Virus record (IMG/VR): IMGVR_UViG_2718217884_000004
Direction: 5' to 3' (one strand)
Length of the DNA stretch: 26,719 nucleotides
Source: a virus
Lineage: Duplodnaviria > Heunggongvirae > Uroviricota > Caudoviricetes
Shown in pieces: positions 3,309-25,359 of the stretch. The notes beneath the pieces were generated by a model, which saw nothing but the letters and a program-made list of their open reading frames with translations, had not been told where the DNA came from and searched no databases. The position numbers and the translations under genes were made by a program. How positions within the stretch are numbered: the stretch's first letter is position 1; each line of letters starts with the position of its first letter.

Positions 3309-3751
3309 CTACGGCAGTGCTGGCCATTCAATATCCTGTGCAGTTGACGTATCAACACGGTTCAGCAATACCCGATACTTTTTCCATGCTTCCAGCAACG
3401 AGATTTCTTCCTCCGTTGCAATTTCCAGATCTGCAGCATCCTGAAGCGGCGCAATATGCTCACTGGCTACCTGCATCAGGCTGTTTTTTGTTTCTTCCGC
3501 CTCCCGGATCCGGAACAGTTTTTCTGCTTCCGTATCCTTCACCCAGGCTGTGCCGTTCCACTTCTGATATTCCCCTCCCGGCGATAACCAGGTAACATTT
3601 TCCGGTAACGGACCGAGTTCAGAAATAAATAACGCGTCGCCGGAAGCCACATCATAAACCGTTTTACCCCGATGATCTTCAACGAGATGCCACGATGCCT
3701 CATCACTGTTGAAAACAGCCACGAAGCCTGCCGGAATATCTGGCGGTGCAA

Positions 3752-3752: not shown

Positions 3753-6482
<2,730 letters not shown>

Positions 6483-6508
<26 letters not shown>

Positions 6509-8770: not shown

Positions 8771-9115
8771 GATGGTGTTAACTCCAGTCATCGCTGGCAC
8801 TACCACTGCTGGTTCAGAGTTAAAAAAACTATGATTTTTTTCATGATGTTACCGTAGTATGTGAGTATCCATCGAATAGACACCAAGCAAAAAAGCTCCC
8901 GAAGGAGCCTTCATTTTCACTTTTTTAAATCCAACGACAGACGGCTGGCATTTAAGTATTGTGAAATATTATCAAATGTAATCATCATTGATTTACAAAA
9001 GATACATTTTGCCCCGAAAGGATTCATGTCAGAAACATCAAAAGATGATGTTCTATACTGGGAACCATGACAACACGGGCATCTAAAGTGAATATGGTTT
9101 GTAATATTGTCTACC

Positions 9116-9328
9116 TCAAAGCGCCACTACATGAACAGCGGCAGGACCTTTAGGTCCGTTCTCAATACCAAATTCAACTTCCTGATTCTCAGTTAATGTT
9201 TTGAAATCGTTGCTCTGAATTGCTGAGAAATGGACAAACACATCTTTGCTGCCATCTTTCGGCGTGATGAAACCAAAACCTTTTTCAGGGTTAAACCATT
9301 TCACTAAACCAGTCATTTTGTTAGACAT
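9116..9328 (-). CDS. cspI: Cold shock protein, CspA family
   Basis: 70-aa [41 protein letters not shown]... with the RNP1/RNP2 motifs; long upstream leader typical of csp genes. Confidence 0.85.
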
Positions 9329-9689
9329 AATTATTACCTTTTGAAGAAATTAGCCCTTGGGCAGAATGGTCCGAAAAAAATATCAGAGAGAAAAACCAAC
9401 AAGGAAATCTCAAGAGGTACAAATAATAAAATTATAACAATGACTGCTTCAGATAAATTTGTAACAAACCAGAACACCATTAACGCATGATTAACCACCC
9501 ATAGCAAGGATTACTTTTGTAAAGAAAAACACAGCAATGAAAGAATAGCTTTATTTATTAATAAAACGTGTCATTCTGATTAAGACCTTTTATCTTACCC
9601 TTAAGATTTCAGGAATTTTGGCTCATGGAAGAGTCCTTTTTATTTAAATTTTACATTCCGCGATGTAAATGTTCCGATTTAATATTACC

Positions 9690-11308: not shown

Positions 11309-11498
11309 AGCCTCACCTCCGCAGATAACGGATGGTGTACACGGTTTGGTTCGAAGAAGGAAAGAAGTTACATTAGCGTAAGGCCCGAACATCTATTCAA
11401 AAAGAAAAACGCCAGCAATTATTCTGGCGTAGCTAAAAATATCGTATAATCTTACACTTCAAAAAATAACTTTATAAAATGCCATCACATCATATCTT

Positions 11499-12221
11499 CT
11501 AAGAAAATCTTGATAAATATTGGTGCGGAGGCACACCAAAATATCCTCTAAAAACACTTACAAAATATGATGCATTGTCATACCCGCATATTCCCGCCAC
11601 CTTGCCGACAGTATGGTTACTGTAGATCAATAATCTTTGCGCCATCATCATTCGTTCTTCAAGAATTAATTTACTAAACGATAATCCTTCGTCTTTTAAT
11701 TTTCTTTTTAACAAACTCTCGCTCATATATAATCTTGAAGATATATCACAAAGTCTCCATGACGCTGAGATATCCGAGTGAATAATAGCCTTAACTTTAC
11801 AACCTAAGCTATTAAGACTTCCGAACAAAAAACTTTGCACTATTTTCTCTGAAGATAAGACAGCAAGACATGCAAGTGATATTTGATTTCTAACTACATC
11901 CACGGTTTTGCTATCACAATTCAAGCATGCAACCAAGTTCTTTAACAATGAAAAATCTTCACATTCTACTATCAAGTATGACGGATAAAACCTTCTTACA
12001 GAAAAAGGTGAGAGTGTGTAGTTTTTAAAGAAATCATTAACTGTTTTCTCCTCAACATCTACGATCATTAGATGATCTGTATTTGACGAAAAAAGATCTT
12101 TTAAATTGTATTCAATGAGAACAGCATTTCCTTTTTTAAACAAAATATCTTCTTTACCAATTCGGACACCAAACGAGTTCAACACCAAAATGATAGAACA
12201 TATGTATGGCATATTATCCAC
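11499..12221 (-). CDS. AraC/XylS-family transcriptional regulator, AppY/GadX-like
   Basis: 240-aa ORF with a C-terminal AraC-type HTH (GICGYDNASYFVSVFRGYFGVPPHQY). The gene and its flanks are visibly AT-rich compared with the neighbouring phage genes. Confidence 0.8.
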   Translation of the reverse strand: MDNMPYICSIILVLNSFGVRIGKEDILFKKGNAVLIEYNLKDLFSSNTDHLMIVDVEEKTVNDFFKNYTLSPFSVRRFYPSYLIVECEDFSLLKNLVACLNCDSKTVDVVRNQISLACLAVLSSEKIVQSFLFGSLNSLGCKVKAIIHSDISASWRLCDISSRLYMSESLLKRKLKDEGLSFSKLILEERMMMAQRLLIYSNHTVGKVAGICGYDNASYFVSVFRGYFGVPPHQYLSRFS

Positions 12222-12618
12222 CTGATATCATTGGGGTTACACCAGGTAAGTATAGGTGGAAAATCAATATTCGCCAGTTCAACAATAAGGAAAATCTCAT
12301 TGCATCACAACTATAAAACCATGTGTTTAACTCACAAAAAACAAATCATTAAACTAATCTGTTATATTATAATAGCTGCGTGCAATAATAATATTATATG
12401 CTCTTAATATTCACTTGAAATATCTTCATATAAAAACAGATTGAATAAAATCTTTTGGGGCTGGTATGTTTACCAACATTAAATTGCATCTCAATGTTTT
12501 CTTTAGCGTGAACAGGATTTTTATAAAAACTGACACTATGAGCATCATAGCGTAGTTTTTACGATTGTAAATATCCTGCATACAGGAACTCATCACTTTC
12601 AGATGATATCGCATACAG

Positions 12619-13578
12619 TTAATTCACCATCAGTCTTAGAGCCAGTTCTTCCGGATAGGGATCGAAGTAATTCTGTGTAAGCAAGTAATCATTAGGATAC
12701 TCACCCAGATAATGCTTCAGCAGAGTCAACGGCGCAAGAAGAGGCAATGTGCCAAAGCGATAGTTAAGTATAACCTCGCTCAACTCTTTACGCTGGCGTG
12801 TACTTAAGTAATTACTAAAATACCCCTGTATATGCATCAGCACATTCGTGTGATTTTTACGTGATGCTGGTTTTCTGAGAATCGCCATCAGATTATCACG
12901 ATACACCTCAAAGTATGATTCAAGGTCCGCCCACTCGTGTATTGCAGCCACAAATGGTCCCATATCTTTATAGCCTGCCTGGCTATGCGCCAACAACTGA
13001 AGCTTATAACGACTATGAAAAGCTAATAACTCTCTTCTTGATAATTTCTCCTTGTAAAGGTGATTGAGCTCATGCAAAGCAAAAACTCTTTCAATAAAAT
13101 TCTCACGAAGCACTGGATCATGTAATCGCCCATCCTCTTCAACCGGTAGCCAGGAAAACTTTTCCATCAAAGTGCTCGTAAATAGTCCCACTCCATCTTT
13201 ACGACCTCGATTACCATTTTCATCATAGACACGCACGCGCTCCATGCCACAGCTGGGAGATTTAGCACAAACCACAAACCCCGATACATCCTTTAATTTG
13301 TCCATATAAGAACGACTAAACTCTGTCATTCTCTCTGTCACATCCTCATTCTGGTCGTGGCTGAAACACATCCGTATATTTCCTTGCTTCGAGCGCACAA
13401 GTCGTAGAGCAGGACGCGGAACTGGCAGCCCTATAGCCATTTCCGGACATACTGGTCTGAATGTTACCCATTCCACTAATTTGTCCATTAAAAAGTCATC
13501 TCTTTTGTGACCACCATCAAAACGAACAGCAGAACCGCCCAAACAACCGCTGATCCCAATCACAGGTTTTTTTATCAT
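12619..13578 (-). CDS. Two-domain protein: N-terminal DUF523 (TudS-like, putative Fe-S thiouracil desulfurase fold) fused to C-terminal DUF1722 (YbgA-like)
   Basis: 319-aa ORF with conserved Cys residues at GISGCLGG, FRPVCPE and CAKSPSCGME in the N-terminal half. Domain assignment is by recollection of family motifs, not by search. Confidence 0.65.
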   Translation of the reverse strand: MIKKPVIGISGCLGGSAVRFDGGHKRDDFLMDKLVEWVTFRPVCPEMAIGLPVPRPALRLVRSKQGNIRMCFSHDQNEDVTERMTEFSRSYMDKLKDVSGFVVCAKSPSCGMERVRVYDENGNRGRKDGVGLFTSTLMEKFSWLPVEEDGRLHDPVLRENFIERVFALHELNHLYKEKLSRRELLAFHSRYKLQLLAHSQAGYKDMGPFVAAIHEWADLESYFEVYRDNLMAILRKPASRKNHTNVLMHIQGYFSNYLSTRQRKELSEVILNYRFGTLPLLAPLTLLKHYLGEYPNDYLLTQNYFDPYPEELALRLMVN

Positions 13579-13770
13579 TTCCTCCCCCTTGACTAATTCA
13601 TTAACACATAAACTTTGTAGTGCACGGACTAAATTGCCTTTCTGGCTTCATCACTGACAATTTTTCTGTTATTGACTATTCCTAATATAGTAGGAAAGTT
13701 CTTTAAGTGATCGGTCGTACTCATCTATCTTTCATACTTACTCTCAACTATCAAAAGTACAGGATTTATT

Positions 13771-14295
13771 ATGAAGTTATGGCCTGTGTTGACTGGCATT
13801 GCACTCTCTTTCACTCTTATAGCATGTAAGGCCCCGACACCACCTAAAGGTGTGCAGCCGATTACAAATTTTGACGCCAACCGCTACCTCGGAAAATGGT
13901 ATGAAATAGCTCGCCTCGAGAACTGGTTCGAACGTGGTCTGGAACAGGTCAGCGCTACTTATGAAAAACGGAACGACGGAGGGATTCGCGTACTTAACCG
14001 TGGATACGATCCAACGAAAAACAAATGGAGCGAGAGCGAAGGTAAAGCATACTTTACTGGAGATACTAAAACTGCAGCGTTGAAAGTTTCGTTTTTTGGC
14101 CCCTTCTATGGTGGCTATAATGTAATCAAACTGGATGATGAGTATAAGTATGCTCTTGTCAGTGGTCCGAACAGAGAATACCTATGGATTCTGGCAAGGA
14201 CCCAAACTATTCCAGATAATGTAAAAGCAGACTATGTGCGTACCGCTCAAAAGTTGGGATTCAATGTCAATGAACTATTATGGGTTAAACAATAA
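13771..14295 (+). CDS. Bacterial lipocalin (Blc-like outer-membrane lipoprotein)
   Basis: 174-aa ORF with a signal peptide and lipobox (TLIAC) and lipocalin motifs (NFDANRYLGKWYEIARL; KVSFFGPFYGGYNVI...EYLWILAR). I estimate roughly 60% identity to chromosomal E. coli Blc. Confidence 0.85.
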   Translation: MKLWPVLTGIALSFTLIACKAPTPPKGVQPITNFDANRYLGKWYEIARLENWFERGLEQVSATYEKRNDGGIRVLNRGYDPTKNKWSESEGKAYFTGDTKTAALKVSFFGPFYGGYNVIKLDDEYKYALVSGPNREYLWILARTQTIPDNVKADYVRTAQKLGFNVNELLWVKQ

Positions 14296-14320
14296 AATCC
14301 CCACCCGAAATGATACTTAT

Positions 14321-14350
14321 TAGAAAAAAACCAGCCTTTGGGGAGGCTGG
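14321..14350 (-). terminator. Rho-independent terminator on the minus strand, in the tR' position about 100 nt downstream of Q
   Basis: Stem CCAGCC/GGCTGG (14331-14336 and 14345-14350) with an 8-nt loop, followed on the minus strand by a U7 run (A7 at 14324-14330 on plus). Confidence 0.5.
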
Positions 14351-14450
14351 CTAAATCAGGAAACAAGCTGTTATATGATAATAACTACGTTGCGATTCCA
14401 ACATTTAAAATGTTAGACTAATGAAAATCAGACAGCAACTTTTCCTTTAA

Positions 14451-14828
14451 TTATTTCGAACAATCAGCATCCATCTCCAATCGGAGATCCAACACCATCA
14501 GCATGCCCTCCACTACGCCCTCAGCTTTCTGGAGCATCCTGCCAACCCAACAATCAGATCGCCCATGCTTACGTGCAAGCGCCATAAAAGTCATGCCGCC
14601 GACATAATAGTCCACCAATAAATCATGTAAATCGCTGTTGTTTTTTTTCAGGCGAGCCATACATTCACAAATGATCATCGCGTCATCGTCACAGCATTGC
14701 GGACGAGATCTTACTTTTGAAGGAATTAATCCCTTAAAACCGGCGGCAATGGACGACCAGGTCACATCTTCATGATTATTAGCCGCCCATGCCCCCCAAC
14801 GCTCAAGAACCATCTGAATATCACGCAT
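14451..14828 (-). CDS. Late-gene antitermination protein Q (phage 82/21 type, QuuD-like), 125 aa from the first ATG
   Basis: [33 protein letters not shown]... with Cys-rich motifs. The track ORF starts at a TTG at 14843. Confidence 0.8.
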
Positions 14829-14845
14829 CAACTTACTCCACAAAA

Positions 14846-15895
14846 TTAGGCCAGCACACCAATTGCCAGCGCGCGATCGATAAATCGAAAAATCAGCTCC
14901 AGTTGGGAGCCATACTTCTCTTCAAATGCCACGGTATCCGTATGCAACTCGTCGTGATGCTTTCTGCACAAAGGCAACACAAAGAGATCATGTGCTTTGG
15001 TTCCCATTCCGCCCTGCCCGTGACCAATCAGATGATGCGGATCGTCGGCTGGCATACCGCAGCAAGCACACGGCTGTGTCTTAACCCAGCGTGTGTATTT
15101 CTCCTTAACCCAACGGTGACGTTTAGGCAGCTTCATGAAAGATTCCGGAGACTCTGGATCAACGGTGATGCTTACCACCGTCTTTTCTTGTGATGGGTTT
15201 TGTTGCTGGTGGGCGTGAGGCAACGGTGCAAGATTTTTTGTGCGCTGTTTCAGTATGCTGGTGGCGGTCTGCTCTCCCGGTACGATGTCGCTTTCACGGT
15301 ACATTGAGCGGATTTTTTCCGCACGCAACCCCAGCGAACGACGTAATACCGCTTCCGGTAGCGCGTCCGCCACCTGATTGCGGACCGCCCACCAGGATAA
15401 TTCAGCCAGAGATAATTCACGCTCCTGCGTACCGCTTATTGCGTGACCGATGACGTCAATCATCCATGCTGACAGGTTTTGATGAGCTAGTTGCTCGAGT
15501 GATTCGGATGTCTGGTCACGCAGCTGGTTGTCGCAGTGCCAGCACAACACCATTGCGCCGGTACCATAACGGTGAATGACGGTTTCGCTGTGATGATAAT
15601 CGCCGTGTGGCCACTGGCAGGATTTAATATGGCGCAACAGCCAGTCAGACAATGCACCAGCACCACCAGCAGCACGAATCACCCGTGCGTTACTGAAAAA
15701 CGGCAGCAATGTTTTGTCTTCCACCAGCGGCTGGCGAGCGGCAGGAACGACCCCGGACGGCAGATTACGCATGCTTTTCGGTTCCGGCTCCACCAGTAAC
15801 CGGGTATTGTGGAATACCGGCATGGGTTCACGGCCCGGCTTAACGATCACCAGCCCGAGTTCCGGTACCAGAACAGGTCGAAGTAATACCCGCAC
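14846..15895 (-). CDS. ydfU: DUF968-family prophage protein with a C-terminal Cys/His (HNH-like) motif
   Basis: 349-aa ORF; C-terminus [45 protein letters not shown]. Confidence 0.7.
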
Positions 15896-16241: not shown

Positions 16242-16493
16242 TTATTCTTCTGAAAAAGCAGAAAAGCCAGCTTTTATTCCGATCTCTTTCAATGCCTGTA
16301 ATGAAGTGACAAACTCACCGTCGCGCAAGATAAATCCGTCCGTCACTCGGGCATCCACATAATTAATTAACGCAGCCCCATTTTTTTGCAAACACACAAT
16401 GCGGTAATGACTAGCAATATTTCCATTTTCAACGCACACAGCATAGAGGCCATCTTCACAAAAAATTTTACGCAGTTCTTCGATGTTCATCAT
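16242..16493 (-). CDS. rem: Prophage protein Rem-like (83 aa)
   Basis: Track ORF MMNIEELRKIFCEDGLYAVCVENGN...; position downstream of hokD as in Qin. Confidence 0.55.
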   Translation of the reverse strand: MMNIEELRKIFCEDGLYAVCVENGNIASHYRIVCLQKNGAALINYVDARVTDGFILRDGEFVTSLQALKEIGIKAGFSAFSEE

Positions 16494-17500: not shown

Positions 17501-17793
17501 TATCGCACTACAACATGCTTAGGGCAAGTCACGAAGGAAGTCAGAAAGTAGTCGTAAGAACGGTGATCACTGTCCGCTTTCTGCCAGGAGCAGCCATTGC
17601 TAAGTCCATCCTGTATTGTGCAGGTCAGCTCGTTTTTAAAGAGTCCGGCCATCATCTTACTGGTACAGACACCATATACTTTGTGACGGTCAGGCTACAT
17701 ATGCACAACTCAACTTATTCATCTATTTTTTGCTTTAGCATGTCAGTGTTGCTTTCTCGTCGGCGGGTGAGCGGTGACCTGACCTGTCGATAA
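17488..17793 (+). CDS. Possible YdfV-like ORF (101 aa); weak
   Basis: Track ORF whose length matches YdfV of Qin, but the composition is atypical (Cys-rich, no recognisable motifs). Confidence 0.3.
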   Translation: MSLQVSHYNMLRASHEGSQKVVVRTVITVRFLPGAAIAKSILYCAGQLVFKESGHHLTGTDTIYFVTVRLHMHNSTYSSIFCFSMSVLLSRRRVSGDLTCR

Positions 17794-17945
17794 AGGAACG
17801 TAACACGTTTTATGCAACACCCGCATGCGGCAGAAAATTATTGCCGAACGTTTACCCCTGTCAACAAGCTTTACTTTCTGAGGCGCGCCAGCCCGCGAGG
17901 AAAACAATCTGAACATCAAACAATTAATGACACAAGAAATACGAT

Positions 17946-17972
17946 TAAAGATTTTTTTGTTCATGCCGATAG
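17946..17972 (+). promoter_or_regulatory. Sigma-28 (FliA) type promoter of flxA
   Basis: TAAAGATT-N11-GCCGATAG matches the sigma-28 consensus TAAAGTTT-N11-GCCGATAA, about 25 nt upstream of the flxA start. Confidence 0.6.
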
Positions 17973-17995
17973 TGCTTTTTTAAAAGGAGAAATCT

Positions 17996-18328
17996 ATGTC
18001 TGTCACAATTCAGGGAAATACCTCAACCGTTATTTCAAACAACTCCGCCCCGGAAGGAACATCAGAAATAGCCAAAATCACAAGACAAATTCAGGTGCTG
18101 ACTGAAAAGCTTGGGAAAATCTCATCGGAAGAGGGGATGACGACACAGCAGAAAAAAGAAATGGCTGCATTGGTACAGAAGCAAATTGAAAGCCTCTGGG
18201 CTCAACTGGAGCAGTTGTTAAGGCAGCAGGCAGAGAAAAAGAATGAAGACGCGACAGTTCAGCCTGATAAAAAAGAAGAGAAAAAAGACGATACAAATAC
18301 CGCTGGCACCATTGATATTTACGTCTAA
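17996..18328 (+). CDS. flxA: FliA-regulated protein FlxA
   Basis: 110-aa ORF MSVTIQGNTSTVISNNSAPEGTSEIAKITRQIQVLTEKLGK...; AAGGAGA RBS. Confidence 0.85.
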   Translation: MSVTIQGNTSTVISNNSAPEGTSEIAKITRQIQVLTEKLGKISSEEGMTTQQKKEMAALVQKQIESLWAQLEQLLRQQAEKKNEDATVQPDKKEEKKDDTNTAGTIDIYV

Positions 18329-18764
18329 GTGACAGCCGTATTGTGGCCCTCATCGGGCCACTTTTCGCCATCAGCCTTTTCTTTAAAGACATATTATCTT
18401 TGTATCATTTCTGATAGTTAACATTACAAGATATAAGTAATGGACGCACTCCCAATTAGTCTATTTAAATCGCCACGAGTTTAACTGACAACCCATGATC
18501 AATTATGAATTGCAACTATTTCTGTAGTCACTTTTGTGGGGACAGTCCACAAAACTGCCAACTTCCGCTTCTTGCTCTTAGCGGACATTAGCATAGGCTA
18601 TTTACCATAACGCCTCATTACGCGCACCGCCCAGACTGACTCAGCGCGTTTCTGGCATATCCCCGGTAAAACAAGTAACAAACCACCCGAAAATGAACAC
18701 CAGAAACGCGACTTAAGAATCTACCCTATGAATGGATATGCACTCAACCGAATCGATCTTGGTT

Positions 18765-19187
18765 TCAATCTTTTTTATCGGGATCAGGCTTCTTTTTAGG
18801 TAACTTCGGGGGCTTAACTTGCTGATGACTTTGCGTTCGGCGCGTAAGCCAGGGATGGTCAGCTTTAGGTTTAACATAGTATTTTGAGCGTAAATCAATA
18901 CGGGCATTAGCCTCCATAATCGCAGGCACTAGCGCCGTGAACTTTTCACGCTTATCCCTGGTGTCGATAGCCTTCCAGCGTTCGAATATCTTCACTCGAT
19001 TAACACCAAGCGCTCGCTGATCAACCGCGCCACCTTCATCTGTGACACGCTGAACATCGATGTTCGGGCGCTCTTTCAAAGCCCAGAATGCTTCAGTGAT
19101 TAATATCGTCGCCTGCTCCTGTGTCATTCCTGGTCGACATATCCAGGCATCCAGAGCCTCACGAGCCTGTTCAGGAGTGATTTTCAT
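18765..19187 (-). CDS. Hypothetical protein of the dicC operon (YdfX-like), 140 aa with a Lys/Pro-rich C-terminal tail
   Basis: Track ORF MKITPEQAREALDAWICRPGMTQEQ...; its ATG overlaps the end of the dicC 3' fragment. Confidence 0.5.
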   Translation of the reverse strand: MKITPEQAREALDAWICRPGMTQEQATILITEAFWALKERPNIDVQRVTDEGGAVDQRALGVNRVKIFERWKAIDTRDKREKFTALVPAIMEANARIDLRSKYYVKPKADHPWLTRRTQSHQQVKPPKLPKKKPDPDKKD

Positions 19188-19224
19188 TGTTCAACCGCCC
19201 CGCCCGCTTCGTCTTACGATATTC
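19171..19224 (-). pseudogene. dicC: dicC 3' fragment (last 17 codons, EYRKTKRAGRLNNENHS-stop) displaced by the IS3 insertion
   Basis: Hand translation directly left of the IS3 left end. It continues the DicC reading frame that is broken at 20484. Confidence 0.75.
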
Positions 19225-19289
19225 TGATCTTACACAGCAATAGTGGACACGCGGCTAAGTGAGTAAACTCTCAGTCAGAGGTGACTCAC

Positions 19290-19589
19290 ATGACAAAAAC
19301 AGTATCAACCAGTAAAAAACCCCGTAAACAGCATTCGCCTGAATTTCGCAGTGAAGCCCTGAAGCTTGCTGAACGCATCGGTGTTACTGCCGCAGCCCGT
19401 GAACTCAGCCTGTATGAATCACAACTCTACAACTGGCGCAGTAAACAGCAAAATCAGCAGACGTCTTCTGAACGTGAACTGGAGATGTCTACCGAGATTG
19501 CACGTCTCAAACGCCAGCTGGCAGAACGGGATGAAGAGCTGGCTATCCTCCAAAAGGCCGCGACATACTTCGCGAAGCGCCTGAAATGA
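19290..19589 (+). CDS. insE: IS3 transposase OrfA (99 aa, HTH)
   Basis: [53 protein letters not shown]... from the first ATG (the track ORF starts at a GTG at 19281). Confidence 0.9.
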
Positions 19590-20452
19590 AGTATGTCTTT
19601 ATTGAAAAACATCAGGCTGAGTTCAGCATCAAAGCAATGTGCCGCGTGCTCCGGGTGGCCCGCAGCGGCTGGTATACGTGGTGTCAGCGGCGGACAAGGA
19701 TAAGCACGCGTCAGCAGTTCCGCCAACACTGCGACAGCGTTGTCCTCGCGGCTTTTACCCGGTCAAAACAGCGTTACGGTGCCCCACGCCTGACGGATGA
19801 ACTGCGTGCTCAGGGTTACCCCTTTAACGTAAAAACCGTGGCGGCAAGCCTGCGCCGTCAGGGACTGAGGGCAAAGGCCTCCCGGAAGTTCAGCCCGGTC
19901 AGCTACCGCGCACACGGCCTGCCTGTGTCAGAAAATCTGTTGGAGCAGGATTTTTACGCCAGTGGCCCGAACCAGAAGTGGGCAGGAGACATCACGTACT
20001 TACGTACAGATGAAGGCTGGCTGTATCTGGCAGTGGTCATTGACCTGTGGTCACGTGCCGTTATTGGCTGGTCAATGTCGCCACGCATGACGGCGCAACT
20101 GGCCTGCGATGCCCTGCAGATGGCGCTGTGGCGGCGTAAGAGGCCCCGGAACGTTATCGTTCACACGGACCGTGGAGGCCAGTACTGTTCAGCAGATTAT
20201 CAGGCGCAACTGAAGCGGCATAATCTGCGTGGAAGTATGAGCGCAAAAGGTTGCTGCTACGATAATGCCTGCGTGGAAAGCTTCTTTCATTCGCTGAAAG
20301 TGGAATGTATCCATGGAGAACACTTTATCAGCCGGGAAATAATGCGGGCAACGGTGTTTAATTATATCGAATGTGATTACAATCGGTGGCGGCGGCACAG
20401 TTGGTGTGGCGGCCTCAGTCCGGAACAATTTGAAAACAAGAACCTCGCTTAG
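19586..20452 (+). CDS. insF: IS3 transposase OrfB (DDE integrase-type catalytic domain)
   Basis: 288-aa ORF; its ATG overlaps the insE stop (ATGA), the usual OrfA/OrfB frameshift arrangement of IS3. Confidence 0.9.
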
Positions 20453-20483
20453 GCCTGTGTCCATATTACGTGGGTAGGATCAA

Positions 20484-20660
20484 TTCATCATAAACTTTGG
20501 GATCATACTGAAGCTCCCCGCCAGATGCCTCCTGTAGACGCATCGCGCGACCTTCAGGAACCAGTATCCCCCAAGCAGCAACACTTGCCAGCCTCACTCC
20601 TGCGGCATTGGCAAGCTTTGTTTTGCTGCCAAAAAAAGTAATTGCGTCAACTTTAAGCAT
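20484..20660 (-). pseudogene. dicC: dicC 5' part (codons 1-59, Cro-like regulator), interrupted by IS3
   Basis: MLKVDAITFFGSKTKLANAAGVRLASVAAWGILVPEGRAMRLQEASGGELQYDPKVYDE, after which the frame runs into the IS3 end (LILPT-stop). The track ORF 20466..20663 includes those IS3-derived codons. Confidence 0.8.
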
Positions 20661-20673
20661 CAAAGCCCCCTCT

Positions 20674-20691
20674 TGTTAGACTTTTCTAACA
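20674..20691. promoter_or_regulatory. Operator palindrome in the dicC-dicA divergent promoter region
   Basis: TGTTAGA-CTTT-TCTAACA, a perfect 7-bp inverted repeat between the divergent dicC and dicA starts. Confidence 0.6.
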
Positions 20692-20740
20692 TTATTGTGC
20701 GCGGGATACCTAAGTCAAGAAAAATTAGAATTACCTAACT

Positions 20741-21148
20741 ATGGATACAAGAACCCTGGGCCAGCGAGTTCTGGCGCGACGAAAAGAATTACGCTTAACA
20801 CAACGAGAAGCCGCGCGCCTCGCTGGAGTTGCTCACGTCACAATTTCACAATGGGAAAGAGACGAAACCCAGCCAGTCGGAAAACGATTGTTTGCTTTAG
20901 CGGATGCTCTGAAGTGCTCACCTACATGGCTAATGTTTGGTGACGAAGACAAGGCACCAGTGCCTGCACAAGAACTTCATGTGGAAACAGAGCTAACTCC
21001 CAACCACAAAGAATTGATCGAATTATTCGATGCTCTTCCATCTTCCGAGCAGGAAGCCTTGCTGTCTGAAATGCGCGCAAGAGTAGAAAACTTCAACAAA
21101 CTCTTCGAAGAAATGCTTAAAGCGCGTAAAAATAAATCAATAAAATAA
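20741..21148 (+). CDS. dicA: XRE-family HTH repressor DicA
   Basis: 135-aa ORF MDTRTLGQRVLARRKELRLTQREAARLAGVAHVTISQWERDETQPVGKRLFALADAL... Confidence 0.9.
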   Translation: MDTRTLGQRVLARRKELRLTQREAARLAGVAHVTISQWERDETQPVGKRLFALADALKCSPTWLMFGDEDKAPVPAQELHVETELTPNHKELIELFDALPSSEQEALLSEMRARVENFNKLFEEMLKARKNKSIK

Positions 21149-22190: not shown

Positions 22191-22248
22191 TTTCTGGTGA
22201 CGTTTGGCGGTATCAGTTTTACTCCGTGACTGCTCTGCCGCCCTTTTT
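22191..22248 (+). ncRNA. dicF: DicF small RNA (ftsZ and manX translational repressor) with its intrinsic terminator
   Basis: TTTCTGGTGACGTTTGGCGGTATCAGTTTTACTCCGTGACTGCTCTGCCGCCC followed by TTTTT, between ydfC and dicB. The GGCGG...CCGCC stem plus U-run forms the terminator. Ends are approximate. Confidence 0.6.
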
Positions 22249-22887: not shown

Positions 22888-25359
22888 ATGAGTAAAGTCT
22901 TTATTTGCGCCGCTATTCCTGACGAACTGGCAACAAGGGAAGAAGGCGCTGTGGCTGTAGCCACAGCCATTGAAGCTGGCGACGAACGCCGTGCTCGAGC
23001 AAAATTTCACTGGCAGTTCCTGGAACATTATCCGGCTGCTCAGGACTGCGCTTATAAATTTATTGTCTGCGAGGATAAACCTGGCATACCCCGCCCTGCC
23101 CTCGATTCATGGGATGCTGAATATATGCAGGAAAACCGCTGGGATGAGGAGTCTGCTTCTTTTGTCCCGGTTGAGACTGAATCCGATCCGATGAACGTCA
23201 CTTTTGACAAGCTGGCCCCTGAAGTACAGAACGCTGTCATGGTTAAGTTCGACACATGTGAAAACATCACCGTTGATATGGTTATTAGCGCACAGGAATT
23301 GTTGCAGGAAGACATGGCAACATTCGACGGACATATCGTTGAAGCGTTGATGAAAATGCCAGAAGTTAACGCCATGTATCCGGAGCTTAAGTTGCACGCC
23401 ATTGGGTGGGTTAAGCATAAATGTATTCCTGGTGCTAAATGGCCCGAAATTCAGGCAGAGATGCGCATCTGGAAAAAACGTCGCGAAGGTGAACGCAAGG
23501 AAACCGGAAAATACACGTCTGTTGTTGATCTCGCCCGCGCCAGAACCAATCAACAGTACACTGAAAATTCAACAGGAAAAATCAGCCCGGTCATTGCTGC
23601 CATTCATCGCGAATACAAGCAGACATGGAAAACACTGGATGACGAACTGGCCTACGCTCTCTGGCCTGGTGATGTGGATGCCGGAAACATTGACGGCAGC
23701 ATCCATCGCTGGGCAAAAAAAGAAGTTATCGACAACGACCGCGAAGACTGGAAGCGTATCTCGGCATCAATGCGCAAACAGCCTGATGCCCTTCGCTACG
23801 ACCGCCAGACTATTTTTGGCCTTGTCCGTGAGCGTCCGATCGACATTCACAAAGATCCCATAGCACTGAACAAATATATCTGCGAATACCTGACGACAAA
23901 GGGCGTGTTTGAGAATGAAGAAACAGACCTGGGCACTGTTGATGTTCTCCAGTCATCAGAAACACAAACTGATGCAGTGGAAACTGAGGTATCTGATATC
24001 CCAAAAAATGAAACCGCGCCGGAAGCTGAACCATCTGTAGAGCGTGAGGGGCCGTTCTATTTCCTCTTCGCAGATAAGGACGGAGAAAAATACGGTCGCG
24101 CAAACAAACTTTCTGGTCTGGATAAGGCACTGGCTGCTGGCGCCACTGAAATCACAAAAGAAGAATATTTTGCCCGAAAAAATGGCACATACACGGGCTT
24201 ACCGCAAAATGTAGATACCGCTGAAGATTCAGAACAACCAGAGCCGATAAAAGTTACCGCTGACGAAGTAAACAAAATTATGCAGGCAGCCAATATCAGC
24301 CAGCCTGACGCCGATAAGTTGCTTGCTGCATCACGTGGTGAATTTGTTGAAGGGATTAGTGACCCGAATGATCCGAAATGGGTTAAGGGGATCCAGACCC
24401 GCGATTCTGTGAACCAGAACCAGCATGAATCGGAACGGAACTACCAAAAAGCGGAACAAAACAGCACAAATGCGTTACAAAACGAGCCAGAAACGAAACA
24501 GCCTGAACCAGTGGCGCAACTGGAAGTGGAAAAAGTCTGCACCGCCTGCGGTCAGACCGGCGGCGGCAACTGCCCTGATTGTGGCGCGGTGATGGGCGAC
24601 GCAACATACCAGGAAACATTCGATGAAGAGTATCAGGTTGAAGTTCAGGAAGATGATCTGGAGGAAATGGAAGGCGCTGAACATCCACACAAGGAGAACA
24701 CTGGCGGCAATCAGCATCACAATAGCGATAATGAAACTGGCGAGACGGCAGATCACTCAATTAAGGTGAACGGTCATCACGAAATCACATCCACCAGCAG
24801 GACGTGTGACCATCTAATGATCGACCTTGAAACCATGGGAAAAAATCCTGATGCCCCGATCATCTCAATAGGTGCAATATTTTTCGATCCGCAAACCGGA
24901 GATATGGGACCGGAATTTAGTAAGACTATCGATCTGGAAACTGCTGGCGGAGTCATTGATCGGGACACCATTAAATGGTGGCTTAAGCAATCACGCGAAG
25001 CGCAATCTGCCATTATGACCGATGAAATCCCGTTAGATGATGCACTGTTACAATTGCGGGAATTTATCGACGAAAACTCCGGTGAATTTTTTGTTCAGGT
25101 TTGGGGAAATGGAGCCAACTTCGACAACACGATTTTGCGCCGTTCATACGAACGGCAGGGGATCCCCTGCCCGTGGCGTTACTACAACGATCGCGATGTA
25201 CGCACAATCGTTGAGCTGGGGAAAGCCATAGACTTCGATGCCAGAACGGCTATTCCATTCGAAGGTGAGCGCCATAATGCACTTGATGACGCCCGTTACC
25301 AGGCAAAATACGTTTCAGTTATCTGGCAAAAACTGATCCCGAGTCAGGCTGATTCTTAA
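22888..25359 (+). CDS. Large prophage protein (823 aa): acidic N-terminal region with a RecE-like segment, a CxxC...CxxC zinc-ribbon-like motif, and a C-terminal DnaQ-like (DEDDh) 3'-5' exonuclease domain
   Basis: Uninterrupted 823-aa ORF. Segment DKLLAASRGEFVEGISDPNDPKWVKGIQTRD resembles the central part of RecE. CTACGQTGGGNCPDCG near residue 550. C-terminal motifs MIDLETMG, WGNGANFDNTIL and HNALDDARYQA fit the three Exo motifs of DEDDh exonucleases. Confidence 0.8.
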   Translation: MSKVFICAAIPDELATREEGAVAVATAIEAGDERRARAKFHWQFLEHYPAAQDCAYKFIVCEDKPGIPRPALDSWDAEYMQENRWDEESASFVPVETESDPMNVTFDKLAPEVQNAVMVKFDTCENITVDMVISAQELLQEDMATFDGHIVEALMKMPEVNAMYPELKLHAIGWVKHKCIPGAKWPEIQAEMRIWKKRREGERKETGKYTSVVDLARARTNQQYTENSTGKISPVIAAIHREYKQTWKTLDDELAYALWPGDVDAGNIDGSIHRWAKKEVIDNDREDWKRISASMRKQPDALRYDRQTIFGLVRERPIDIHKDPIALNKYICEYLTTKGVFENEETDLGTVDVLQSSETQTDAVETEVSDIPKNETAPEAEPSVEREGPFYFLFADKDGEKYGRANKLSGLDKALAAGATEITKEEYFARKNGTYTGLPQNVDTAEDSEQPEPIKVTADEVNKIMQAANISQPDADKLLAASRGEFVEGISDPNDPKWVKGIQTRDSVNQNQHESERNYQKAEQNSTNALQNEPETKQPEPVAQLEVEKVCTACGQTGGGNCPDCGAVMGDATYQETFDEEYQVEVQEDDLEEMEGAEHPHKENTGGNQHHNSDNETGETADHSIKVNGHHEITSTSRTCDHLMIDLETMGKNPDAPIISIGAIFFDPQTGDMGPEFSKTIDLETAGGVIDRDTIKWWLKQSREAQSAIMTDEIPLDDALLQLREFIDENSGEFFVQVWGNGANFDNTILRRSYERQGIPCPWRYYNDRDVRTIVELGKAIDFDARTAIPFEGERHNALDDARYQAKYVSVIWQKLIPSQADS

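Follow-up and report, generated by a model that had tools for sequence, protein, structure and literature searches.

What becomes of a prophage switch when an insertion sequence enters its Cro-like gene is the question raised by dicC in the virus record IMGVR_UViG_2718217884_000004, a stretch of 26,719 nucleotides referred to here as the window. The first-pass annotation had described a complete IS3 that severs dicC and separates it from its downstream gene, and had suggested that the DicA/DicC switch could be altered. The host element is a Qin-type cryptic prophage of E. coli, located between ydfJ and rspB and carrying the relBE-hokD-rem, flxA, dicC/dicA and ydfABC-dicF-dicB-ydfD modules. Most of the window aligns collinearly with K-12 Qin, at 96–99% identity. 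An 80-bp interval with a promoter-like site separates the divergent genes dicC and dicA (Table 1). The location of this candidate site agrees with that of dicCp, which is treated in the literature as the counterpart of lambda PR (PMC10448788). The homologue of dicC in deposited phages bears the annotation Cro, and the gene after it is cII, CII-like or ydaT.

Table 1. Features of the interrupted dicC locus and its surroundings, in window coordinates.
Feature	Position	Strand	Basis or remark
Downstream gene, 140 aa: 93 N-terminal residues of a YdaT-family (CII-like) protein, in-frame fusion with ydfW	18765..19187	-	ATG overlaps the dicC stop region
Older deletion joint	18908..18909	.	About 4.9 kb of MB10 absent; right breakpoint the same as the K-12 ydfX/ydfW joint
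Orphaned dicC 3' fragment: duplicated GAA copy, codons 60-75, stop	19171..19224	-	98.4-100% identity to K-12 and MB10 dicC 3' ends
Left copy of the 4-bp target-site duplication ATTC	19221..19224	.	Flank inspection; natural empty site needs IS + 4 bp removed
Complete insertion sequence IS3, 1,258 bp	19225..20482	+	Ends TGATC...GATCA; near-match to the K-12 copy
IS3 left terminal inverted repeat (IRL)	19225..19263	+	IRL/IRR alignment, about 39 bp; A-for-C variant at 19234
IS3 orfA, 99 aa, HTH_Tnp_1	19290..19589	+	ORF and domain match
IS3 orfB, 288 aa, rve DDE integrase core	19586..20452	+	PF00665, E = 5e-28
IS3 right terminal inverted repeat (IRR)	20444..20482	+	IRL/IRR alignment
dicC 5' fragment: 59 native codons + 5 IS-encoded (LILPT), stop inside IRR; 64-aa chimeric ORF = WP_073527387.1	20466..20660	-	ORF; P22_Cro at residues 3-58
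Right copy of the 4-bp target-site duplication ATTC	20483..20486	.	Flank inspection and natural empty site
Promoter-like site for dicC, TTGACT-16-AATAAT, dicC-dicA intergenic	20691..20718	-	10/12 consensus matches; consensus match only
dicA allele, 135 aa, CI-like HTH_3 repressor, intact, divergent from dicC	20741..21148	+	99.9% identity to the MB10 locus, there 'helix-turn-helix domain-containing'
DicF sRNA of the dicBF operon, target of the DicA/DicC switch	22192..22243	+	Rfam RF00039, 76.7 bits

The inserted element is a complete member of IS3 (IS3 family, IS3 subgroup). It runs from 5'-TGATC to GGATCA-3', and its terminal inverted repeats are imperfect: the left repeat, TGATCTTACACAGC..., is similar over about 39 bp to the reverse complement of the other end, TGATCCTACCCACG..., with 5'-TG...CA-3' termini. 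Both reading frames are intact and overlapping, orfB lying in the -1 frame, and a slippery A-AAA-G motif is found at 19552-19556. Besides the rve core, domain matches were obtained to PF13333 rve_2 (E = 5e-22) and PF01527 HTH_Tnp_1 (E = 5e-10). The overlapping frames and the slippery motif are the arrangement expected for programmed frameshifting, and near-identical copies bear the RefSeq label 'IS3-like element IS3 family transposase, programmed frameshift'. The element has one mismatch with the IS3 copy in K-12 ren (locus L021), at IS position 10, and five with that of G4/9, and megablast matches annotated as IS3 show 99.3–99.6% identity to it. The variant base at IS position 10 (A in the window, C in L021 and L001) is shared with two further loci, L005 and L017. 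Elements of the IS3 family transpose by a copy-out/paste-in mode.

The insertion is precise, and the pre-insertion allele persists unchanged in many natural strains. On re-inspection the ATTC repeat was present on both flanks, and removal in silico of the IS together with one ATTC rejoined a minus-strand open frame, MLKVDAITFF...YDEYRKTKRAGRLNNENHS, ending in a stop codon; no open frame resulted from removing just the IS, or the IS and 3 bp. The insertion point lies between bases 1 and 2 of codon 60. DicC of strain MB10, annotated with 75 aa (WP_000921596.1), has exactly the sequence of the restored protein, and the reconstructed empty site matches uninterrupted E. coli loci with 100% identity over 1,031 bp, the excision point included. 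At least 80% of the 1,239-bp empty-site query was covered by 545 E. coli genomes. These matches to a natural empty site and a natural protein are far stronger evidence than a flanking 4-mer repeat, for which the chance is 1/256. The element with its duplication, the split after codon 59 and the restoration of the frame are thus as first described, and the outer coordinates given for the locus, 20663 and 19171, stand, the latter being the final base of the dicC stop codon. The length of the rejoined frame had been given as 76 aa and needs amendment: it is 75 aa from the annotated ATG (20660) and 76 only with the in-frame TTG at 20663. DicC of K-12 has 76 aa owing to one additional internal residue.

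The length of the duplication is atypical for the IS3 subgroup, where it is usually 3 bp (PMC10045372), against 4 bp at dicC. In the literature on this point, only that general 3-bp statement for the subgroup was found. Other natural IS3 copies have 3-bp ATG flanks in G4/9 and 4-bp TAAC flanks in E24377A, and a 4-bp duplication is no bar to membership in IS3.

The allele is already public, its chimeric product being deposited at NCBI as WP_073527387.1, although complete genomes gave no sign of it. A 2.5-kb region was searched against 5,426 complete RefSeq E. coli genomes and the configuration was found in none; separate 160-bp junction queries against the same genomes left both junctions uncovered, and an exact 25-mer of the left junction had 0 matches in the GTDB species representatives. 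Such absences would be expected if a repeat-collapsed IS had been placed wrongly during assembly. However, the right junction occurs in six independently assembled loci (L005-L010) and the left one in another (L017), the 4-bp duplication is perfect, the excised sequence exactly matches natural empty sites, and 29 contigs, one of them 4.7 Mb long, carry the chimeric protein. An assembly artefact is effectively refuted, and we give it next to no probability. The intact allele is far commoner, with at least 1000 contigs vs. 29. Two kinds of apparent matches were set aside: partial 'IS3 + ydfW' matches represent a separate insertion of IS3, about 485 bp from this one and accompanied by an ATG duplication (window 18738-18740), and the E24377A match is an IS3 within a DUF977 gene. 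A breakpoint hot spot was sought among the other members of the protein cluster of the chimera, and none of them shares the breakpoint. Unrelated C-terminal fragments of YdaT are also grouped in that cluster. The literature search retrieved no paper on dicC::IS3.

The damage to the protein appears to be confined to its C-terminus. The break falls after Glu59, so that 16 native residues (YRKTKRAGRLNNENHS) are lost and five IS-encoded ones, LILPT, are gained; the loss had previously been counted as 17. Judging by its Pfam score and cro-like position, the reconstructed DicC is a P22-Cro-type regulator. The P22_Cro domain (PF14549, gathering cut-off 30.2 bits) matches residues 3-58 of both forms, scoring 45.9 bits in the reconstructed protein and 46.3 bits in the truncated one, and P22 Cro itself (PDB 1RZS) aligns to residues 1-58 of DicC with E = 1.2e-6. 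The Cro-like regulator is therefore split, as had been stated, but 'severed' overstates the extent, since the P22_Cro segment is whole and only the conserved basic C-terminal tail is replaced. Within the lost tail, homologues that differ in their N-termini or distal tails show little or no variation at Y60, R61, K62 and R65. The proximal motif YDEYRKxKR is held near-invariant even in Salmonella forms with another distal tail, and such conservation across divergent homologues argues for constraint. The full-length tail is also found in Cro proteins of deposited phages. An AlphaFold2 model of a full-length DicC homologue (P0001), of low confidence overall (mean pLDDT 64, pTM 0.36), places a helix at residues 54-65, across the breakpoint, with pLDDT there of about 52-60. 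Operator binding and repression of dicA by DicC are known for the K-12 and O157 proteins (PMC10448788, PMC6915034). With the basic segment YRKxKR... gone, DicC(1-59)-LILPT is probably a null or hypomorph, i.e., a weakened or inactive Cro.

The insertion also puts 1.26 kb between the dicC promoter and the next gene, as previously noted. That gene had been described as YdfX-like. It is no intact gene newly silenced by the insertion but a YdaT/CII-like remnant fused to ydfW and truncated at an earlier time. The same 140-aa YdaT-YdfW fusion coexists with an intact 75-aa DicC in nine loci (L011-L016 and L018-L020). Because the older deletion also occurs beside intact dicC, the downstream gene was defective before IS3 arrived, and by the time the element entered, the replication region of the prophage and most of the CII-like ydaT were gone. 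The history of the locus continued after the insertion. Locus L005 (GCA_045607865.1) is 100% identical to the window but is devoid of window 17600-19224; 1,625 bp abutting one end of the IS are missing, and no duplication is present. In at least one descendant genome, the same IS thus gave rise to an adjacent deletion of 1.6 kb at a later time. The sequence fits either intramolecular transposition or recombination between this IS3 and a second copy that was present only transiently; adjacent deletions produced by IS3 family elements are a topic of PMC11708052. As a clean pair, the window and GCA_045607865.1 document the states before and after an IS3-adjacent deletion.

We consider it highly probable that IS3 transposed into the cro-like dicC of a Qin-type prophage, with a product that is likely weakened and a dicBF operon more stably OFF. 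The element duplicated its 4-bp target ATTC on entry. The dicC frame, ending five codons into the IS, would yield a product that keeps the helix-turn-helix Cro core, and untranslated antisense passage through the 1.26-kb IS3 should exert polarity on the already defective ydaT'-ydfW remnant. This polarity and the absence of outward promoters are read from a simple consensus scan only. Basal repression of dicBF by DicA should be unchanged and spontaneous or stress-induced flips to the toxic dicBF-ON state should become rarer, by analogy with published ΔdicC strains. In one such strain basal dicBp activity was unchanged, dicBp-ON colonies fell from 1.16% to 0.04%, and induction by urea and heat was weaker (PMC10448788). 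In O157:H7, ΔdicC lowered dicB expression and raised the growth rate (PMC6915034), and high DicC expression was reported to inhibit growth independently of Qin (PMC11430063). The suggestion that the switch is altered is reasonable in the light of the ΔdicC phenotypes, and its direction can be qualified: the expected outcome is a more stable DicA-ON/dicBF-OFF state, i.e., firmer repression of dicBF rather than derepression of DicB, DicF and YdfD. The event would amount to neutral or mildly beneficial prophage decay or domestication. The points that speak against this explanation are the retention of the whole recognisable Cro domain, the 61-aa length of P22 Cro itself, the low confidence of the helix model and the 4-bp duplication.

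Three other readings of the insertion deserve attention. The truncated protein could still be a working Cro with a dispensable tail, in which case the switch would be normal, polarity would affect only a dead remnant and the event would be fully neutral. The domain score, which does not fall on truncation, the alignment of the solved 61-aa P22 Cro to residues 1-58 and the prior truncation of the ydaT'-ydfW gene all favour such an outcome. Nevertheless, it seems rather unlikely to us, since the near-invariance of YDEYRKxKR in otherwise differing homologues points to a function of the tail, the low-confidence model sets the last helix across the cut, and the added LILPT contains a proline. Another reading relates to the transcription of the element itself: read-out from IS3 might supply additional dicA-sense, dicC-antisense transcription and reinforce the DicA state independently of the protein truncation. 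orfA and orfB are indeed on the plus strand, co-oriented with dicA and antisense to dicC', and face the dicC 5' fragment and dicA, and no plus-strand terminator-like site was detected from the end of orfB (stop at 20452) up to the start of dicA at 20741. Yet the consensus scan, which covered hybrid and outward promoters at both ends of the IS as well as terminators within it, detected nothing at the junctions, with neither a junction nor a hybrid promoter-like site at either end, and its counts were no higher than the shuffle expectation. The two weak plus-strand promoter-like matches inside the IS are not above chance (3 found vs. 2.2 expected). This reading is purely inferential, and we regard it as very improbable.

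It is also conceivable that the insertion was positively selected, the knockout of dicC removing a growth-inhibitory factor and locking dicBF-ydfD off, which would make it adaptive domestication instead of drift. The published ΔdicC strains, one switching ON about 30-fold less (PMC10448788) and one growing faster in O157:H7 (PMC6915034), are in line with such a benefit, as is the Qin-independent toxicity of overexpressed DicC (PMC11430063). In public data the same allele is broken in many other ways, by frameshifts, by fusion of dicC to ydfW and by differing chimeric continuations after residue 32 or 42, and the insertion allele persists in its lineage. However, under relaxed selection any gene of a decaying prophage would be disrupted repeatedly to the same extent, the intact allele remains far commoner, and the insertion is absent from the complete RefSeq genomes; selection for this particular insertion is thus unlikely. 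The wider proposal, that disruption of dicC is recurrent and positively selected in E. coli and Shigella and locks Qin-type prophages DicA-ON, we find more doubtful still. If it were true, loss of dicC would remove a host-toxic transcription factor, while the phage-defence and division functions of dicBF would stay under repressor and Rem control; the IS3 allele and its adjacent-deletion descendant would then be a case caught in the act, and the other broken copies independent repeats.

Taken on its own, the IS3 insertion in dicC is an ordinary step of prophage decay, and neither the element nor its target gene nor the kind of event goes beyond the textbook. Its significance beyond annotation is slight. 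WP_073527387.1 is named as an ordinary Cro/CI regulator though its last five residues are IS3-encoded, and it merits a disrupted-gene flag. The lineage also offers a natural C-terminal truncation of DicC which could be used for probing the conserved basic tail in the bistable DicA/DicC switch.

The locus can be placed against several known systems. As in K-12 Qin, dicC is divergent from dicA and upstream of a ydfX/ydfW remnant, the ydfABC-dicF-dicB-ydfD genes lie beyond dicA, and the whole is found between ydfJ and rspB; unlike K-12, the window prophage keeps a full-length exonuclease, xis and int. The two prophages carry different immunity alleles: the C-terminal 44 residues of K-12 DicC are identical to those of the reconstructed protein, whereas the N-terminal 31 residues and dicA diverge, and K-12 dicC is uninterrupted. 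The IS3 copy of K-12 agrees with the window element in its length of 1,258 bp, in 1,257 of 1,258 bases, and in the TG...CA ends, imperfect inverted repeats, overlapping orfA/orfB, A-AAA-G motif and HTH_Tnp_1 and rve domains, and differs in having C instead of A at IRL position 10. P22 Cro is homologous to DicC 1-58 but is free of the additional basic tail of about 14 residues, and it is this tail that IS3 takes away. With respect to the general pattern of IS inactivation and adjacent deletion in prophages, there is nothing unusual here: a simple insertion with a duplication was followed by a deletion in a descendant.

The first-pass annotation had placed a complete IS3 at 19225-20482, inserted in dicC with an ATTC duplication, and this observation was correct and well read. 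A 1,258-bp element with imperfect terminal inverted repeats of ~39 bp occupies exactly these positions (stretch 18900-20900 read), running from 5'-TGATCTTACACAGC... at 19225 to ...GGGTAGGATCA at 20482, and re-inspection shows an ATTC copy directly outside each end. As had been stated, dicC breaks after codon 59: the last native residue is Glu59, and the frame stops after five further residues encoded inside the IS (MLKVDAITFF...PKVYDE-LILPT*). Three in silico excisions, a check proposed in the same annotation, were compared. Deletion of the IS with one ATTC gives a continuous frame ending in ...YDEYRKTKRAGRLNNENHS*, identical in translation to DicC of the uninterrupted E. coli strain MB10 (WP_000921596.1, 75 aa), where the gene is annotated 'dicB transcriptional regulator DicC'; deletion of the IS alone, or of the IS plus 3 bp, did not restore an open frame. 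The fragments do rejoin as claimed, but into 75 aa from the ATG, the proposed 76 being reached only by counting the upstream TTG, and the native residues lost number 16 rather than 17. K-12 DicC has 76 aa. As a 1,239-bp query, the restored empty site was compared with 5,426 complete E. coli genomes: several match it with 100% identity across 1,031 bp including the excision point, and in 545 genomes at least 80% of the query is covered. Since the empty site exists in natural genomes and the restored product equals MB10 DicC, the insertion was precise, with a target duplication of 4 bp.

Features of the dicC::IS3 locus and the surrounding prophage
Feature	Position	Strand	Remarks
ATTC target duplication, two copies	19221-19224 and 20483-20486		directly outside both IS ends
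Interrupted dicC ORF	20466-20660	minus	64 aa from ATG 20660; 65 aa from TTG 20663
dicC 3' fragment	19171-19224	minus	
Downstream fusion ORF, 140 aa	18765-19187	minus	starts 17 nt before dicC end
DicA, 135 aa, HTH_3	20741-21148		divergent from dicC
Promoter-like TTGACT-16-AATAAT	dicC-dicA intergenic region		directed at dicC; sequence match
DicF	22192-22243		
Exonuclease	22888-25359		full length
641-aa ORF	4583-6508	minus	first non-K-12 segment
Gene with DUF1722 and 2-thiouracil-desulfurase-like domains	12619-13578	minus	second non-K-12 segment
Lipocalin-family gene	13771-14295	plus	second non-K-12 segment
IS009 sRNA	3343-3541	minus	Rfam, 221 bits
cspA-type thermoregulator 5' UTR	9089-9473	minus	Rfam, 114 bits
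rem, 83-aa ORF	16242-16493		stretch collinear with K-12 and G4/9, where rem is annotated

The element is IS3 by all the defining features tested, its 4-bp duplication being atypical. Both orfA (99 aa, HTH_Tnp_1) and orfB (288 aa; HTH_21, rve, rve_2) are open and overlap, with an A-AAA-G motif at 19552, and near-identical RefSeq copies are named 'IS3-like element IS3 family transposase, programmed frameshift'. Duplications of 3 bp are usual for the IS3 subgroup (PMC10045372). Natural IS3 copies examined show 3 bp (ATG, G4/9), 4 bp (TAAC, E24377A) or none (K-12 ren::IS3), so that the length at dicC is atypical but has precedent. Against the K-12-lineage copy in ren, the dicC element shows one base change only: A replaces C at window 19234, IS position 10, which falls in IRL. 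This position is one where IRL and IRR normally match, and the variant is common to loci L005 and L017 of other assemblies; the change might lower the mobility of this copy. A separate IS3 lies in G4/9 at window 18738-18740, between flxA and ydfW, with a 3-bp ATG duplication, and also in several other complete E. coli genomes, judged by match pattern. As that insertion is independent of the one in dicC, IS3 entered this short Qin stretch at least twice.

The gene now separated from the dicC promoter by the IS was a remnant already before the insertion. Residues 1-93 of the downstream fusion ORF are identical to the start of a 173-aa YdaT-family protein of MB10, and the remainder is the ydfW reading frame. 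At the joint (18908-18909), ~4.9 kb of MB10 from ydfW to mid-ydaT is absent, comprising an ISEsa1 remnant, a methyltransferase pseudogene, a DUF977 gene, a 321-aa hypothetical gene and the 3' part of ydaT. Compared with the K-12 ydfX/ydfW joint, the right breakpoint is equal, whereas the left one is displaced inwards by 38 bp and shows TA microhomology; through this additional loss ydfX and ydfW share a single 140-aa frame, and the joint resembles a K-12-type one that underwent a small secondary deletion. The fusion protein co-occurs with intact 75-aa DicC in nine other loci (L011-L016, L018-L020), so the deletion came first and IS3 second.

Neither IS3-dicC junction was found in the 5,426 complete RefSeq E. 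coli genomes, nor the left one in GTDB species representatives. The right junction is carried by loci L005-L010, and the left, with the IRL variant, by L017. Records of the 64-aa chimera come from 49 collection blocks, and it was seen on 29 contigs, against at least 1000 contigs for intact DicC. It is mis-annotated in NCBI (WP_073527387.1 / APL42897.1), named plain 'Cro/CI family transcriptional regulator' with no indication of truncation by IS3. The insertion is an ordinary finding of a known kind, with its allele already in public databases. In L005 (GCA_045607865.1), a near-identical genome, IS3 and the right junction are the same, and both flanks match the window at 100% identity. The left end of the IS (7435/7436) joins window 17599 there, inside ydfV, with no duplication; the missing 1,625 bp (17600-19224) held the dicC 3' fragment, the ydaT'-ydfW fusion, flxA and part of ydfV. 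This arrangement arose from that of the window by an IS3-adjacent deletion, an event already known for IS3 family elements (PMC11708052), and the two loci form a before-and-after pair.

Public protein records hold other broken versions of the same dicC allele (P0039, P0049, P0058, P0065, P0066, P0071, P0072, P0078, P0082, P0092-P0099, P0100-P0104): residue 32 (WGI|) is followed by at least six different chimeric sequences and residue 42 (RAMRL|) by four different ones, and there are also two dicC-ydfW-frame fusions and several frameshifted forms. Part of them may be metagenome assembly chimeras; so many broken forms are compatible with relaxed selection as well as with selection against DicC. 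The 90%-identity cluster with chimeric DicC (P0106, P0109, P0111) is represented by an unrelated 83-aa fragment matching the YdaT C-terminal part, which seems to be an artefact of how the collection was clustered.

For study of the DicC tail, the lineage supplies a naturally truncated form. The Pfam P22_Cro match (residues 3-58) scores the same in intact and truncated DicC, and the 61-aa P22 Cro aligns to residues 1-58. The lost segment opens with Y-R-K-x-K/R-R; Y60, R61, K62 and R65 show little or no variation among homologues differing in the N-terminal region or distal tail, and in a low-confidence AF2 model the last helix (residues 54-65) spans the cut. The truncated protein with its five IS residues is probably a hypomorph or null, and, with a premature stop and then 1.26 kb of antisense IS that is not translated, a polar effect on the downstream remnant is expected. 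In K-12, dicC deletion leaves basal dicBp unchanged, makes spontaneous ON colonies rarer (0.04% instead of 1.16%) and dampens the response to urea and heat as inducers (PMC10448788). In O157:H7, dicB is expressed less and growth is faster after this deletion (PMC6915034), and high DicC expression inhibits growth independently of Qin (PMC11430063). From these data the dicBF-ydfD cassette would be expected to be more firmly repressed, not released. Induction through Rem, the antirepressor of DicA (PMC10448788), should remain in this prophage.

The interrupted dicC encodes a P22-Cro-type regulator and occupies the cro position in a Qin-type cryptic prophage. Deposited phages carry DicC-type proteins with the same tail at that position, the next genes being annotated cII, CII-like or ydaT, and YdaT is reported to be functionally equivalent to CII (PMC9986795). 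From its start in ydfJ to its end in the integrase beside rspB, the window is for the most part collinear with K-12 Qin; gene calls on identical loci place dicB, ydfD, the exonuclease, xis and int further downstream. Unlike in K-12 Qin, exonuclease, xis and int are full length, and the segments ~3753-6500 and 11337-14846 have no counterpart there.
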